The translations under genes were made by a program, and so were the position numbers. From Patescibacteria group bacterium (lineage in GTDB: Bacteria > Patescibacteriota > Minisyncoccia > Phycocordibacterales > CAIZLB01), in assembly GCA_040386515.1 (NCBI GenBank), contig JAZKFG010000005.1, positions 97,077 through 151,410 on the forward strand: a stretch of DNA of 54,334 bases. Reading direction: 5' to 3'. The stretch's first letter is position 1. Each line of letters opens with the position of its first letter. This document shows positions 35,404 to 52,125 of the stretch, piece by piece. The notes beneath the pieces are model-generated. The model did not search any database and was not told where the DNA came from. It was given only the letters and a program-made list of their open reading frames with translations.

Positions 35404-36339
35404 TTATCTCCCCTTCCGGTGAAAATTCTTATGCACCTCATGCAAATGTCTATCCGTCACATGCGTATACACTTGCGTAGTTGTAATATTTGAATGACCT
35501 AAAAGTGCCTGCACAGAACGTAGATCAGCTCCATTTGAAAGTAAATCAGTAGCAAAACAATGTCGTAACACGTGAGGTGTTACTTTTTTTGTTATACCAG
35601 CCATAACCGCATATCGCTTTACAATTCTTTCAATAGTTCTTCTATCTAATCCTTCATATGAATCTTTATTTTTCATCTTTTTCTTTTCATCAGCAAGTGG
35701 AACAAATAGCGCATCGGACATATCTTTTCTTGCTTTTAAATATTCCTTAACAGCATGCTTTGCCTCTTCAGATAAAAACACTACTCTTACCTTTCCTCCT
35801 TTTCCTCGTATTGAAAATTCATCTCTATGTAAATCCAAATCAGATGTAAGTGAACACAATTCAGACACACGAAGTCCTGTTGAAAATAAAAGCTCAAGCA
35901 CTGCTTTGCCTCTCCATTTTCTCTCTTCATCTTTTTCTTTATCAGGCGCCTCTAACAGTCTTTTTAATTCTTCTGCTGAAATAATATCAACTGTTCTCGG
36001 TTCTACTTTAGCTAATTCTATTTGATCTGATGCGAGTGATGTGTGTCCGCGTTTTGCCAACATTTTTAAAAAGCTTCTGATAGCAATAAGATAATAGTTC
36101 TGAGTTTTCTTTTTAATAGTTGTTTGTGTTTGTCTGTTATTCCCTGTTACCTGCCGATTAAGCCATAGACGAAATTCTCGGAGCTTTTCAGGAGTAATGT
36201 CTTTTGGTTCTTGAAATTTACCATGGTTTAAAAAAACAGTCAGATAGTGATCGTAATTCTGCACTGTTCGTATTGCTCGTCCTTTTTCTATTTCTATATA
36301 TTCTAGAAACTCTTGCTTTAAACTTTGAATTGAGGCCAT
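35404..36339 (-). CDS. XerC/XerD-family tyrosine recombinase
   Basis: FLEYIEIEKG...TV.NY, LFSTGLRVSEL, GKGGKVR, TPHVLRHCFATDLL.NGADLRSVQ.LLGHS...TTQVYTHV. Confidence 0.93.
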   Translation of the reverse strand: MASIQSLKQEFLEYIEIEKGRAIRTVQNYDHYLTVFLNHGKFQEPKDITPEKLREFRLWLNRQVTGNNRQTQTTIKKKTQNYYLIAIRSFLKMLAKRGHTSLASDQIELAKVEPRTVDIISAEELKRLLEAPDKEKDEERKWRGKAVLELLFSTGLRVSELCSLTSDLDLHRDEFSIRGKGGKVRVVFLSEEAKHAVKEYLKARKDMSDALFVPLADEKKKMKNKDSYEGLDRRTIERIVKRYAVMAGITKKVTPHVLRHCFATDLLSNGADLRSVQALLGHSNITTTQVYTHVTDRHLHEVHKNFHRKGR

Positions 36340-44147: not shown

Positions 44148-44229
44148 TAATCCCCACCCTCTCCAATCATCCTGCAGCGCCGTCCCGGCCTGCAGGAGAT
44201 TTTATTTTATAATGTGCTATAAATACCCT

Positions 44230-44703
44230 ATGTCTTTGGTATTAAACAGAAAAGTAAGATTCAACTACGAAATACTTCAAAAATTTGAGGTAGGTATTGT
44301 GCTGCAAGGGGTTGAAGTAAAAGCAGTTCGAGGAGGACATATGTCACTCGATGGAGCTCATGTAAGTTTGCTGCCTAAGATTATTTCTATAAAAAAAGGA
44401 GCGCATAGATTGTCACTGATTGGAGCCACTATTACTCCCCTTCAGCCCATGAATGTGCCGGCAGGATATGAACCAGTTGGAGTACGACAGCTTTTGATGA
44501 AGGAAAAGGAAATGGATAATCTTGAAAAGGAGATGAAAAATAAAGGAATTACAATTGTTCCCCTTTCTGTGTTTGCCAAGCGAGGATTGATTAAGATTGA
44601 AATTGCACTTGTGCGAGGAAAGAAGAAGTTTGATAAGCGAGAGACGTTAAAGAAGAAAGATGCTAAGAGAGAGATTGATAGAGTGTTGAAGGGTGGTAAG
44701 TAA
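44230..44703 (+). CDS. smpB: SsrA-binding protein
   Basis: NRKVRFNYEI...E.GIVLQGVEVKAVR.G, R.LL....E, TIVPL, K.EIALVRGKK.FDKR; start ATG 44230. Confidence 0.95.
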   Translation: MSLVLNRKVRFNYEILQKFEVGIVLQGVEVKAVRGGHMSLDGAHVSLLPKIISIKKGAHRLSLIGATITPLQPMNVPAGYEPVGVRQLLMKEKEMDNLEKEMKNKGITIVPLSVFAKRGLIKIEIALVRGKKKFDKRETLKKKDAKREIDRVLKGGK

Positions 44704-44750: not shown

Positions 44751-45157
44751 GGGGATGACCGGTTTTGATATATGAACTTTAAACATACGTGCGCCATCGA
44801 GTATTCTCACAACCTCGTAAAAGCGTGAGAAACCTTAAGTGCATCTGCACGAAAAGCCGTTGCTAGTCCATTCGTTGGATTTAGTAGCTTCGCTTTCGCA
44901 TCAGCTCGAGCCTAACCTCGAGTGCGCATCTACTGTTTATTTACCTTGCGTAGATAGATAGGTGTAATACAGCAAGGTCCGACATAAAAACGTGTTTCGG
45001 TTTTATGTTTAGATTACGAAACTAGTTCGCATACTGTTCTGTTGATCTTAAAGGTATGAGGGCGAATGTATTCCTTCGGGAGTATAAAGATTATCTACAT
45101 GTCGTAGATTCGTATGTTTTACTCATATAGACGAGGGTTCGATTCCCTCCATCTCCA
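44751..45157 (+). ncRNA. ssrA: tmRNA; predicted tag (A)ASARKAVASPFVGFSSFAFASARA* at 44841-44915
   Basis: 5' GGGGATG pairs with 3' CATCTCC-A including G3-U; T arm GAGGG-TTCGATT-CCCTC; downstream of smpB; TAAGT-GCA resume context; stop inside a CTCGAG hairpin. Confidence 0.93.
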
Positions 45158-45161
45158 CAAA

Positions 45162-45190
45162 TTGACAACATATATAAAATGATATATAAT
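45162..45190 (+). promoter_or_regulatory. Perfect sigma70 promoter TTGACA-N17-TATAAT, cassette 1
   Basis: Starts 3 nt after tmRNA ...TCCAC. Confidence 0.85.
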
Positions 45191-45267
45191 ATATTCATGG
45201 TGAATGTTCGGTATGGCTCAAAAACCTTTACTCATAGAGCTTTTTGAGCCCTATCGGCACTACCTAT

Positions 45268-45645
45268 ATGAAAAACAAAGTTCTTATTGTTGACGATGAA
45301 GAGCGACCACGGAAGCACCACCGACTCATCCTAGAAGAAGACCTCCCAGGTATGGTTGAAACACTTACTGCGGCGACCCTTGAAGAGGCAAACAGACTGT
45401 TCGACGAAAACAAGGACGACCTGATCCTGGTCGTGATGGATGCCTGCCTTGAAGGATCACGCCCCGACACTCTCCCCCTCGTTCACCGAATGAGGAAAGA
45501 AGGGTTTAAAGGCAAGATCATCGCAAACAGTTCGATGCCCGAATACCAACAGACACTCCTCAACGCCGGATGCGATCAAGCCTCCAGCGGAAAAAATGAA
45601 CTCGAGGATGACATCGTGGAGATCGTCAAAAATCTCCTGCAATAG
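45268..45645 (+). CDS. Single-domain response regulator (receiver), cassette 1
   Basis: VLIVDDE, VVMD phosphoacceptor, IIANSS, GK; C-ending codon bias unlike flanking core genes; start ATG 45268. Confidence 0.8.
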   Translation: MKNKVLIVDDEERPRKHHRLILEEDLPGMVETLTAATLEEANRLFDENKDDLILVVMDACLEGSRPDTLPLVHRMRKEGFKGKIIANSSMPEYQQTLLNAGCDQASSGKNELEDDIVEIVKNLLQ

Positions 45646-45740
45646 CACGGCGAAGCACCTGTAGACTCAGATTCTTAGAGCTTTCAAAAAACATCTATCC
45701 CTCTGTGGCTCTGGGTGTGTTTTTATTTACATGTGTATTC

Positions 45741-45793
45741 AAAAATCCCAACAATACTGAAAACTGGTTCGATAAAATCCCTATCCTGTCCAC
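45741..45793 (+). repeat. 53-bp cassette-boundary repeat R1 (tmRNA-3'-like att site)
   Basis: aaaaatcccaacaatactgaaaactggttcgataaaatccctatcctgtccac; ungapped 43/53 identity with R2. Confidence 0.85.
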
Positions 45794-45795
45794 AA

Positions 45796-45824
45796 TTGAC
45801 ACAATATAAATTATATTATACATT
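45796..45824 (+). promoter_or_regulatory. Promoter TTGACA-N17-TACATT, cassette 2
   Basis: Begins 2 nt after R1. Confidence 0.7.
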
Positions 45825-45892
45825 CACATAGTCGTTGAAGAAATCGACCTTAAACAACTTCCGTATAGCGAAAACGATACCGCCACAGCACA

Positions 45893-46474
45893 ATGAAGAC
45901 ACTGAAGCCAGAAGTAGTCCTTGAAATTGTAGTTCATCCTACAGGAGGACGAACCGCTTATAATAGTTATCGGTTCCAAGAAAGCGACGGAGCATTTATG
46001 GATTTAATAAGGCTGGAGGATTCCATTTATTCTAAATTTAGAACGACGAGTTTACATCATGGGTTTATAGTTTGCATAATCGGATATTCTCTCCCTAAAT
46101 TTGGTGCACCGAATGGAGTCAGTCGAAGAGAAGTTACCTCAACGCTTCGCTACCTTCAATTAAACTCTCCGAGTTCTGTTGAAACGTTGTTAATCGCCTC
46201 CCAGGTAGCCAGATCATATGAGTTCAACAACCTGATACTGGAGCATGACGGCAGACCAATTGTTGCAACAACACCGTTCCATCCTGAAGCACCAACTTAT
46301 TTTGAATTCGGAATGGCAATGGATACAACAAGTCCTTATCAATATTTTTTCCGAAAGCCCCATAGGGAAGTGGGTGGTGCTACTAAAATTTATTTTGGTG
46401 AGTATGAAGCAACACAATCTAACCAAATGTGGTTAAGGAATAACCCCTTCATTGTTGGCATTAAAGCAACTTAA
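45893..46474 (+). CDS. Orphan protein, cassette 2
   Basis: 193-aa ORF between promoter and terminator; no family recognised. Confidence 0.65.
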   Translation: MKTLKPEVVLEIVVHPTGGRTAYNSYRFQESDGAFMDLIRLEDSIYSKFRTTSLHHGFIVCIIGYSLPKFGAPNGVSRREVTSTLRYLQLNSPSSVETLLIASQVARSYEFNNLILEHDGRPIVATTPFHPEAPTYFEFGMAMDTTSPYQYFFRKPHREVGGATKIYFGEYEATQSNQMWLRNNPFIVGIKAT

Positions 46475-46481
46475 TCTCTTT

Positions 46482-46534
46482 CCCCCACAAGAAAAGTCCT
46501 CACAGACTTCACATCTTGTGGGGGCTTTTCTTTT
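46482..46534 (+). terminator. Conserved terminator motif, copy A
   Basis: GAAAAGTCCTCACA-GACTTCACATCT-TGTGGGGGCTTTTC-TTTT. Confidence 0.8.
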
Positions 46535-46548
46535 ATAAATGGTTACAA

Positions 46549-46601
46549 ATAAATTTCAATAGTACTGCAAATTGGTTCGATAAAATTCCCACCCTGTCCA
46601 C
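46549..46601 (+). repeat. 53-bp cassette-boundary repeat R2
   Basis: ataaatttcaatagtactgcaaattggttcgataaaattcccaccctgtccac; last 17 nt match the tmRNA 3' end at 14/17. Confidence 0.85.
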
Positions 46602-46659
46602 CATTTGTAAAATAACCTTATTTTGTAAGGTTATTTTCGTTATTTAGGGTGTAATACAC

Positions 46660-46688
46660 TTGACATCAATCACTACTTATGATATACT
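46660..46688 (+). promoter_or_regulatory. Promoter TTGACA-N17-TATACT (extended -10), cassette 3
   Basis: ttgacatcaatcactacttatgatatact. Confidence 0.8.
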
Positions 46689-46805
46689 TATATCTGTTAG
46701 TCAAGTACTTTAAAAGGTTAAGCTTGGAATGGAAATCATAATCAACTTGCAGTAAACGCATGCGGATTATTATCCTTCCTACCACGCTTAACCAATCAAA
46801 AATTT

Positions 46806-47045
46806 ATGAACAGACTCGCTATTGAAGCTGCCCTTGTCGAGCTGAAAGCCCAGCAATCCCAACAACTTGGAGAAGCCAGGACTCAGGCCATTGAGGCGGC
46901 ACTCATGAAACTGAACGAGTTGGCACCGGCCGACATCAATCGAACCGTTGGTCCGATCCGCCAATTCATCCACAGTGGTGACACATGTGATATTGTCATC
47001 ACAATTCAACCCTGCATTTTTAATGTAGTGGTTGACTGGAAATAA
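46806..47045 (+). CDS. Small orphan protein, cassette 3
   Basis: 79-aa ORF with internal repeat AIEAAL.(E/K)L twice; GC3-rich. Confidence 0.6.
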   Translation: MNRLAIEAALVELKAQQSQQLGEARTQAIEAALMKLNELAPADINRTVGPIRQFIHSGDTCDIVITIQPCIFNVVVDWK

Positions 47046-47057
47046 TCAACTTCACAC

Positions 47058-47110
47058 GCCTCCGCAAGAAAGCCCTCACGGACTTTACATCTTGTGAGGG
47101 CTTTTCTTTT
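47058..47110 (+). terminator. Conserved terminator motif, copy B
   Basis: AAAGCCCTCAC-GGACTTTACATCTT-GTGAGGGCTTT-TCTTTT. Confidence 0.8.
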
Positions 47111-47126
47111 ATACATATACAGACTG

Positions 47127-47179
47127 ATAAATCTTAATAATTCGAAAAACCAGTTTGATAAAATTCCTACCCTGTCCAC
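47127..47179 (+). repeat. 53-bp cassette-boundary repeat R3
   Basis: ataaatcttaataattcgaaaaaccagtttgataaaattcctaccctgtccac; aligns ungapped to R1/R2. Confidence 0.8.
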
Positions 47180-47182
47180 TGT

Positions 47183-47266
47183 TTGACTAATCCTATCAAT
47201 TTACCTATTATTAATCCCGGGTGGTAAGTCCAAGAAAAAATCGTCCTGCGGGACGGTTTTTATTTT
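47183..47266 (+). other. Empty cassette: promoter TTGACT-N17-TATTAT followed almost directly by a terminator (~45-nt transcript)
   Basis: Promoter 47183-47211; AAAATCGTCC-tgcg-GGACGGTTTT-TATTTT at 47237-47266; no ORF. Confidence 0.55.
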
Positions 47267-47357
47267 ATAAATTTCAATACAGATTTTATACTTTCTTACA
47301 ATTTAATTTAACCCTATTCATATAAACTATTCCCATGTCAGATGTTTGGTAGATTTC

Positions 47358-47433
47358 TGACATAGGCATGTTAATGGTTTAGCATCCTGGATTTACCACT
47401 CAAGATAAGCGAGTTCGATTCTCGTCATGTCCA
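47358..47433 (+). pseudogene. Degenerate tRNA-like element
   Basis: Good T arm GCGAG-TTCGATT-CTCGT, D arm ATGT-taatggttta-GCAT, mismatched acceptor TGACATA/CATGTCC, anticodon stem with one mismatch and 8-nt loop TTTACCAC. Confidence 0.55.
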
Positions 47434-47485
47434 TTATAATTTGATAATACCCACCCAATACTATATTATTGACTCTTAACTCAAT

Positions 47486-52067: not shown

Positions 52068-52125
52068 GCCCTTATTACATGAGGAAGTCCTGAAAGACTT
52101 TACATCTTGTAAGGGCTTTTCTCAT
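52068..52125 (+). terminator. Conserved terminator motif, copy C
   Basis: ATGAGGAAGTCCT-gaaaGACTTTACATCTTGTa-AGGGCTTTTCTCAT. Confidence 0.7.

Follow-up and report, generated by a model that had tools for sequence, protein, structure and literature searches.

How three sub-kilobase, single-gene units came to stand in a row directly behind the transfer-messenger RNA (tmRNA) gene ssrA of a Saccharibacteria genome is the question raised by the locus described here. The locus lies in a stretch of 54,334 nucleotides from contig JAZKFG010000005.1 (assembly GCA_040386515.1), referred to as the window, and positions follow the window numbering. The source genome (G000) comprises 804 kb in 13 contigs with 37% G+C and a completeness of 92.7%. 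Relatives compared with it carry G-numbers, and the genus set consists of G000 and 17 others. The ssrA gene (44751-45158, plus strand; detected by ARAGORN and as Rfam RF00023 at 117 bits) is followed on the same strand by units of 635 bp (45159-45793), 808 bp (45794-46601) and 578 bp (46602-47179), each closed by a 53-nt plus-strand repeat, R (R1, 45741-45793; R2, 46549-46601; R3, 47127-47179). A first-pass annotation of this DNA had described the same units and repeats, and its coordinates were reproduced, as were the 43 of 53 identical positions between R1 and R2. We consider it probable (roughly 0.78) that R1 to R3 are attR-type scars, the P half-sites of elements that target ssrA by means of a large serine recombinase (LSR), and that successive insertions pushed older material downstream.

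The three repeats are related to one another and to the end of ssrA. Ungapped identities among R1, R2 and R3 are 43/53, 41/53 and 41/53, and a repeat search stretches the family to 94 nt. At up to six mismatches the repeat core occurs just three times in the 804-kb genome, which means that R is not a genome-wide repeat; all three copies are in the array, and the occurrence apart from ssrA and tRNA ends that the first-pass annotation had named as speaking against its proposal was not seen. Over its last 17 nt, R2 agrees with the tmRNA end at 14 positions, and 20 of 23 positions match when a 5-nt insert is allowed. In a two-block scan, the T-loop block of R2 (GGTTCGAT) and its last 15 nt were compared with both strands of the whole genome at spacers of 0 to 10, a total of 17.7 million tests. 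The best non-self match was the 3' end of ssrA (20/23, spacer 0), followed by the 3' ends of tRNA-Leu (19/23) and tRNA-Ser (18/23), while the R1 blocks scored below 18/23 on ssrA. R resembles the 3' end of a tRNA or tmRNA gene (tDNA), with ssrA the best match by a small margin, and the difference consists of exactly five inserted bases, in agreement with the likeness first noticed in the repeat.

Repeats of this kind were found in relatives, nearly always in the same place. The ssrA gene was present in all 17 other genomes of the genus. A search model of 40 columns, built from 14 copies of R and run over 50 genomes of the family, gave three matches in G000, four in G006, two in G003 plus one weak match on another contig, and one each in G004, G007 and G008, with weaker single matches in G054, G046 and G041 from other genera. 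All but two of the matches at E <= 1e-3 lie downstream of ssrA and in its orientation; the exceptions are the G008 copy, which is on a different contig from ssrA, and that of G041, where the stretch examined holds no tmRNA. Scores drop with distance from ssrA in G006 (38.5, 35.9, 26.7 and 30.1 bits) and slightly in G000 (40.8, 40.0 and 36.7 bits). A pattern scan of public contigs matched nine stretches, six of them true copies (G007, G006, G008 and three short metagenome contigs). The other three were discarded as chance matches, located inside coding sequence of unrelated bacteria and without the GGTTC part.

What lies between the repeats varies from genome to genome, as a comparison of gain, loss and reordering at TCCAC, the end of ssrA, made clear. 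G003 and G004 are 90.6% identical through ssrA, with the alignment ending at TCCAC, and they realign at the last R and the hairpin that follows it (86%) and in the downstream gene (78%). Between these shared flanks, G003 has two units, with open reading frames (ORFs) of 225 and 337 amino acids (aa), and G004 has one unrelated unit with a 439-aa ORF on the opposite strand. The 225-aa ORF is found in the second unit of G006, starting 32 nt past a repeat, and in G003 the gene next to ssrA on its downstream side is a homolog with 53% identity. The leaders of the two are alignable, and the left end is the same beside ssrA (G003) as it is beside R (G006). In nine other genomes of the genus (G013, G017, G010, G005, G009, G016, G001, G012 and G014) the site is empty, and an A-rich stretch and a terminator-like hairpin stand directly 3' of ssrA.

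The right-hand side of the array points the same way. Window positions 47180-47440 are collinear with the sequence directly 3' of ssrA in G022, which belongs to a different genus, and the order common to both is a TGAC box, TACCTAT, GGTAAG, a terminator and a tRNA-like gene. That gene is 185 nt away from TCCAC in the window versus 168 nt in G022, and the initial part of this sequence agrees with the DNA behind the last repeat of G006 as well. Because the flank is collinear with G022 and G006, positions 45159-47179 are inserted DNA that separates ssrA from its native trailer. The displaced trailer and terminator would occupy 47180-47266 on the plus strand (terminator 47236-47261), and we read this segment as the putative B' side of the oldest attR. 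Together with the flanks shared by G003 and G004, this collinearity bears out the proposal of the first-pass annotation that DNA was inserted serially at the end of ssrA and joined at TCCAC. Its fourth, ORF-less unit ending in a tRNA-like element does not stand, since by collinearity with G022 this segment is displaced native ssrA flank. The tRNA-like element itself (47364-47436, plus strand) is by the same comparison an ancestral neighbour of ssrA and no cassette end, and it was rejected as an insertion target because the array sits upstream of it. It has UAC in the anticodon loop and degenerate stems, with the alanine identity pair G3:U70 and discriminator A, and its first acceptor pair and anticodon stem are mismatched. 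The G022 homolog forms an intact cloverleaf, and G000 carries a separate tRNA-Val(tac).

The likely source of these insertions is a family of LSRs seen on full-length elements in relatives. In G007, a 534-aa LSR with Resolvase and Zn_ribbon_recom domains is convergent with ssrA and has its stop codon 38 nt inside the ssrA 3' end. LSR homologs overlap the end of ssrA likewise in eight further genomes (G024, G038, G027, G198, G214, G137, G209 and G090), in two of which they are degraded: the gene of G038 is split into two frames, and G027 keeps only residues 207-531 in a 334-aa frame. Among 20 LSR loci from 201 genomes of the order, seven overlap ssrA, nine run into the 3' end of a tRNA gene (tRNA-Ala in six cases, tRNA-Leu, tRNA-Met and tRNA-Glu in one case each), two are near tRNA-His and two are not assignable. 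The family holds at least 1,108 proteins at E <= 1e-30 among 8,000 candidates scored, and their source-given names are those of Patescibacteria lineages; searches of viral contigs with two members (P0028 and P0062) returned no relatives. From the two-block scan and the overlap of relatives' LSR genes with the ssrA end, we read the last 23 nt of ssrA (45136-45158, GGTTCGATTCCCTCCATCTCCAC) as a putative B-type (attB) half-site.

Within the array, no recombinase gene is present in the ORF list of 45159-47470, as had been noted before, and tblastn of that interval with four LSRs gave no match save short LSR tails on R2 and R3. The three units hold no recombination genes. Any enzyme that acts on the array must therefore come from elsewhere, and no cognate ssrA-type LSR was found in the window or in the 92.7%-complete G000. 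The sole LSR of G000 (contig C2:150163-151671, minus strand) overlaps the 3' end of a tRNA-Gln gene (C2:150152-150223, plus strand) in likewise convergent orientation and is 24% identical to the G007 LSR; the overlap hints at another tDNA island, belonging to the same superfamily of elements.

The 5-nt insert is what distinguishes R from the end of ssrA, and it is constant. It was found in every R copy read in G000, G006, G007, G008, G003 and G004, in the three metagenome copies and in the site of G214. A scan of G007 with its own ssrA blocks, at spacers of 0 to 10, located three sites at 7.6, 8.5 and 10.1 kb past ssrA, all with spacer 5, and G214 has one spacer-5 site (20/23) 7.6 kb past ssrA, followed by an A-rich stretch and a hairpin. 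The earlier proposal that R is a site of att type with its origin in a tDNA-like end is supported. In attB sites of serine integrases, the published account places the motif of the zinc-ribbon domain 5 bp toward the centre relative to attP (PMC3783163), and because the 5-nt insert matches this offset we take R as the P-type and the ssrA end as the B-type half-site. Position -6 is G in eleven R copies and C in every ssrA. Since most R copies differ from ssrA at this position while ssrA stays intact to its end, the crossover would fall in TCCAC or just beyond it; by the geometry described in PMC3783163, its centre may be placed at the left edge of TCCAC, within ~1 bp. R was also considered as a dif-like Xer site, and this was dropped because the right arm does not fit.

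A further tie to the LSR genes comes from the reverse strand of R. All ten copies of types A and B encode VDR[V/I]GILSN there. Six columns vary within this 27-nt stretch, five of them at the third position of a codon. In the arms of type B, which are those of G007, G008, three metagenome contigs and the G214 site, the reading goes on with NRLKTYLS.FW.YYNSS......LENA and then a stop codon. Tails were compared for 90 LSR homologs with the anchor motif: the majority finish with a peptide encoded by the reverse strand of a tDNA T-arm (...EMGGIEPP...) and represent the integrated form, and three carry R-type tails. The tail of P0107 is identical to the G007 arm at 16 of 26 positions, P0062 behaves likewise, and P0028 (VDRVANLSNQF...) agrees with the type A arm of the window at 10 of 18. 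These three proteins are most simply read as representing the unintegrated attP form. On the minus strand of R1 (45741-45793), and also of R2 (46549-46601) and R3 (47127-47179), we therefore annotate a putative relic of an LSR C-terminal coding tail in attP configuration (VDRIGILSNQFSVLL...). Such a relic would explain both the length of R, ~53 nt or 17 codons, and its conservation across species.

A course of events that would produce the array starts from mobile elements that integrate at the 3' end of ssrA by LSR, with the LSR gene spanning attP. The outer motif (GGTTCGAT) would lie 5 bp nearer the crossover in ssrA than in R, and the crossover would take place in or beside TCCAC. Three successive deposits, the newest adjoining ssrA, would then give the order ssrA, unit 1, unit 2, unit 3, native trailer with terminator, and tRNA-like gene. 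The units may have travelled with an LSR element and stayed in place when that element excised via a nearer attR, or they may have been integrated in trans. G007 has the order ssrA, LSR island, site, 0.96-kb unit, site, 1.6-kb unit, site, and is a plausible 'before' state: excision of its LSR island via the nearest site would leave an array like that of the window. The analysis established what R is, the LSR family and the 5-bp offset, and also that the insertion lies between conserved flanks and that its content differs in relatives; we infer that the exact left junctions of the small units arose from LSR-catalysed events.

Several observations weigh against this reading. The difference at position -6 puts the crossover in the last 5 nt of ssrA or beyond, which is at the edge of the prediction from the Listeria phage integrase (LI). 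By eye, no B' or P' motif was recognisable right of TCCAC in the window junctions, so that each junction has one good half-site and an unrecognisable opposite half; the sole suggestive case in the by-eye search was the true P' arm of G007. The present-day competence of the window sites is doubtful because their right junction halves carry no recognisable motif. The test of third codon positions is weak alone, at about 0.02 for one frame and with a small count. G006 has four R copies and no Resolvase-domain gene in a genome that is 91% complete. An attR for the LSR of G024 was not found in the 12 kb examined, and the scan offered nothing better in G024 and G027 than a weak spacer-8 match and ordinary tRNA ends. 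No intermediate was observed that explains the origin of sub-kilobase units. Recombination itself was not seen: in the assembled contigs of four runs, those of the source run cover the stretch in three contigs with breaks at ~45850 and ~47335 and show no skipping or circular joints, which is uninformative on excision. A 2247-nt 'skip' in run X3 was discarded, as it rests on matches of 26 and 20 nt to the T-arm of another organism.

Whether the units themselves can move is a separate matter. It is possible, and we hold it only tentatively, that they are mobilizable single-gene modules, each with a promoter, a terminator and a P half-site containing the last LSR codons, moved in trans or in cis between Saccharibacteria by the LSRs of visiting elements. 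If so, ssrA would be a gene-capture platform, integron-like in its working and based on serine-recombinase chemistry. In G000 the units are probably immobile now, because the cognate LSR is absent and the right junction halves have no recognisable half-site.

The rival account in which units never moved as units is unlikely. It holds that three full LSR islands integrated in turn and that each lost its recombinase and most of its cargo to random deletion. The degraded LSRs beside ssrA in G027 and G038 are what such decay would look like, and both the falling scores of R copies with distance from ssrA and the absence of a cognate LSR from G000 are in keeping with it. Random deletion should, however, give variable stubs, whereas about ten small units in G000, G006, G003 and G004 have foreign sequence right at TCCAC without an LSR or P' remnant, and the orf225 unit has the same left end beside ssrA in G003 and beside R in G006. 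The arrays of these four genomes contain no LSR fragment by tblastn, and because foreign sequence begins at TCCAC in them we ascribe the left junctions to a recombinase and not to random deletion.

Far less probable is an integron-like platform, in which a resident recombinase, for example an Xer-like one, moves promoter-bearing cassettes at TCCAC with R as the cassette site. One gene per unit, a repeat at every unit end and no recombinase inside the array do recall such a system, and an Xer-like tyrosine recombinase gene lies 9 kb upstream (35404-36339, minus strand; context only), for which the XerD, XerC and XerA models score highest. That gene is, however, present as one copy in 18 of 18 genus genomes, those with an empty ssrA site as well as those with an occupied one, and it is never beside the arrays. 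Its protein reaches 131 bits on the integron-integrase model TIGR02249 against a cut-off of 265 bits, and the second of the two tyrosine recombinases of G000, on contig C10, has no integron-integrase match. R1 to R3 fold at 0 to -1 kcal/mol on both strands, and 180-200 of 200 shuffles fold equally well or better, so R lacks the hairpin of an attC-type site. Unlike the mostly promoterless cassettes of integrons, every unit here comes with a promoter-like site, which agrees with the consensus at 10-12 of 12 positions, and R is accounted for as an LSR attP arm with its coding tail. The integron analogy drawn by the first-pass annotation was abandoned on these grounds, the enzyme family on full-length elements being LSR.

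Least credible is a role for R outside recombination, as a regulatory or UP-like element upstream of -35 boxes or as a homology anchor for exchange after DNA uptake: a TTGAC or TTGAA box does stand 2-3 nt past TCCAC at five junctions (the junction list plus R3), and promoter and hairpin modules are common to units with different ORFs, but no -35 box follows R2, G6_a, G7 and others, the variation in R follows a reverse-strand coding pattern, and copies of R are confined to positions downstream of ssrA and to the far end of an LSR island.

The conserved left flank of the locus is smpB (44227-44703, plus strand; PF01668, 140.9 bits), which is syntenic in G005 and G006. Unit 1 contains a promoter (45162-45190) that fits 12 of 12 consensus positions, a hairpin in the 5' untranslated region (45209-45256), a receiver-domain ORF (45268-45645), a weak terminator and R1. 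In unit 2, a promoter (45796-45824) precedes an orphan ORF of 193 aa (orf193, 45893-46474), a terminator (~46482-46531) and R2, and unit 3 is made up of a hairpin, a promoter (46660-46688), an ORF of 79 aa (orf79, 46806-47045), a terminator (47067-47107) and R3. Promoter-like sites begin 3, 2 and 3 nt past the TCCAC of ssrA, R1 and R3 (45162, 45796 and 47183), just where a -35 hexamer had been reported; one scan of the region counted 13 such sites versus 8.5 +/- 3.3 in shuffles. The claim of a terminator in every unit is right for units 2 and 3, where strong ones stand 3' of orf193 (-23.5 kcal/mol) and orf79 (-21 kcal/mol), and is overstated for the receiver gene, which has a weak stem only with a 24-nt loop.

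Of the ORFs described earlier as a receiver domain and two orphans, neither orf193 nor orf79 has a Pfam match, and the receiver-domain match of unit 1 scores 28.3 bits, under the Pfam cut-off of 30.2. Among the 201 genomes of the order orf79 has no relative, and orf193 has no credible one there, its four matches at E 2e-4 to 9e-4 being to much longer proteins. An index of 5.8 billion proteins held no relative of orf193 at lengths of 106-338, and PADLOC and PHROGs gave nothing usable on the cassette ORFs. Long 5' leaders with strong inverted repeats precede the receiver gene (45209-45256, 22-nt arms) and orf79 (46709-46800, 19-nt arms).

Some elements of the units recur with different cargo. 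Behind a repeat, three genomes, namely G000 (window 46604-46714), G003 (L037 2171 onward) and G006 (L038 5374-5484), have in common a hairpin rich in A and T, a promoter and ~20 nt from the start of the 5' untranslated region. The ORF behind this module differs each time (79, 337 and 240 aa), as though the left-end module had stayed fixed while the cargo was exchanged. A terminator element with two alternative pairings (AAAGYCCTCAC...GTGRGGGCTTTTCTTTT) is found in the window at 46494-46531, 47067-47107 and 52082-52122, and also at loci of G018, G004, G006, G007 and G008, where it stands behind unrelated genes in several genera.

The cargo beside ssrA in relatives includes anti-phage defence. 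In G006 (L038 1417-5159) it consists of a NERD nuclease, a weak PIN-like match and a homolog of Shedu SduA, and the island of G007 (L060 6225-8323) carries a CBASS pair with a SMODS nucleotidyltransferase and a SAVED effector. The LSR island beside ssrA in G214 holds a LOOT RNA (RF03000, 85 bits) at L089 4106-4227. Two further observations concern RNA genes elsewhere. Elements of 65 nt in G009 (C3:7276-7340, minus strand), G014 (C25:6449-6513, minus strand) and G001 (C23:5922-5986, plus strand), at loci L062-L064, reach 60-66 bits on the tmRNA model through the tRNA-like domain alone. They have G3:U70, an encoded CCA and one extra hairpin that replaces the mRNA and pseudoknot part, and a normal ssrA is present in these genomes too. 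Outside the window, G000 has a tRNA with a two-base anticodon (ta) by ARAGORN (contig C5:84533-84605, minus strand).

The array and its counterparts explain a hypervariable spot in a genome of ~0.8 Mb, where one recombinase family is associated with strain-specific orphans in the window and with defence systems (CBASS, Shedu and NERD) in relatives. As attP is spanned by the LSR gene, a natural attB and the P arm of attP are directly legible in genome sequence, and att pairs readable in this manner are useful for mining serine integrases as genome-engineering tools. For annotation, R-type repeats should be marked as att scars and short reverse-strand ORFs as relics of recombinase tails. Full-text searches turned up no paper that describes serine-recombinase elements targeting ssrA in Saccharibacteria or Patescibacteria, and two candidate papers name tmRNA only where they cite ARAGORN; such elements may nevertheless be present in large island databases.

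Integrons and integrase-less attC clusters consist of single-gene units, each ended by a recombination site, and some have no integrase nearby. Integrons work with a tyrosine integrase, a folded attC and mostly promoterless cassettes, and the locus described here differs from them in having no tyrosine integron integrase, an unfolded R and a promoter of its own in every unit. In arrays of the staphylococcal cassette chromosome (SCC), the site into which an LSR integrates cassettes is the 3' end of a conserved gene; composites in tandem, bounded by direct repeats, result, and ccr-less pseudo-SCC elements need a recombinase in trans. The SCC target is rlmH/orfX and not tDNA, the elements are many kilobases long, and the CcrB model matches the G007 LSR and P0028 weakly (58 and 63 bits versus a cut-off of 900 bits).

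The closest described precedent found is that of the ssrA islands of Dehalococcoides. According to the published description, these are tandem islands bounded by repeats of the ssrA 3' end and attributed to the DsiB serine recombinase, a ~540-aa enzyme whose gene lies at attL on the reverse strand and contains the repeat, and a conserved motif upstream of the repeat is not alignable to ssrA (PMC3146451). Fifteen of the islands, about half, have no integration module, and the authors discuss possible cis-mobilizable elements (PMC3146451). As far as that description goes, the two systems are alike in their tandem insertions past ssrA, in a reverse-strand LSR of ~540 aa with an embedded repeat, in a motif that is not from ssrA and in members without a recombinase. 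They are unlike in that the Dehalococcoides islands are kilobases long with several genes, whereas the units here are 0.6-0.8 kb with one gene, and in that the scar here differs from ssrA and has a 5-nt insert, the crossover would be at the very end (TCCAC) and the host is one of the Saccharibacteria.

The tycheposons of Prochlorococcus, as reported, insert at tRNA and tmRNA genes, where newcomers push older elements deeper, and their islands contain scattered partial tDNA copies, degraded elements and fragmented integrases; they carry replication genes, and 910 of 937 elements have tyrosine recombinases (bioRxiv 10.1101/2020.12.28.424599). The displacement of older elements by new ones at a tDNA is common to both, while the putative enzyme here is a serine recombinase and the arrays hold no fragmented integrases such as that report describes. 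In the Listeria phage integrase, an outer motif of 7-9 bp is described in both sites, 5 bp nearer the crossover in attB (PMC3783163), and the 5-bp offset between R as P-type and the ssrA end as B-type, read here from sequence alone, is like that of phage serine integrases. Of the features of LSR elements that target tDNA, this locus shows the following: the insert lies between an intact ssrA and a same-orientation copy of its 3' end, presence or content between the flanks is variable, and the attP/attB offset is 5 bp. An LSR adjoining the target gene was seen in G007 and eight other genomes, not in the window or G000. The locus is an insertion hotspot of a kind already known and no integron.

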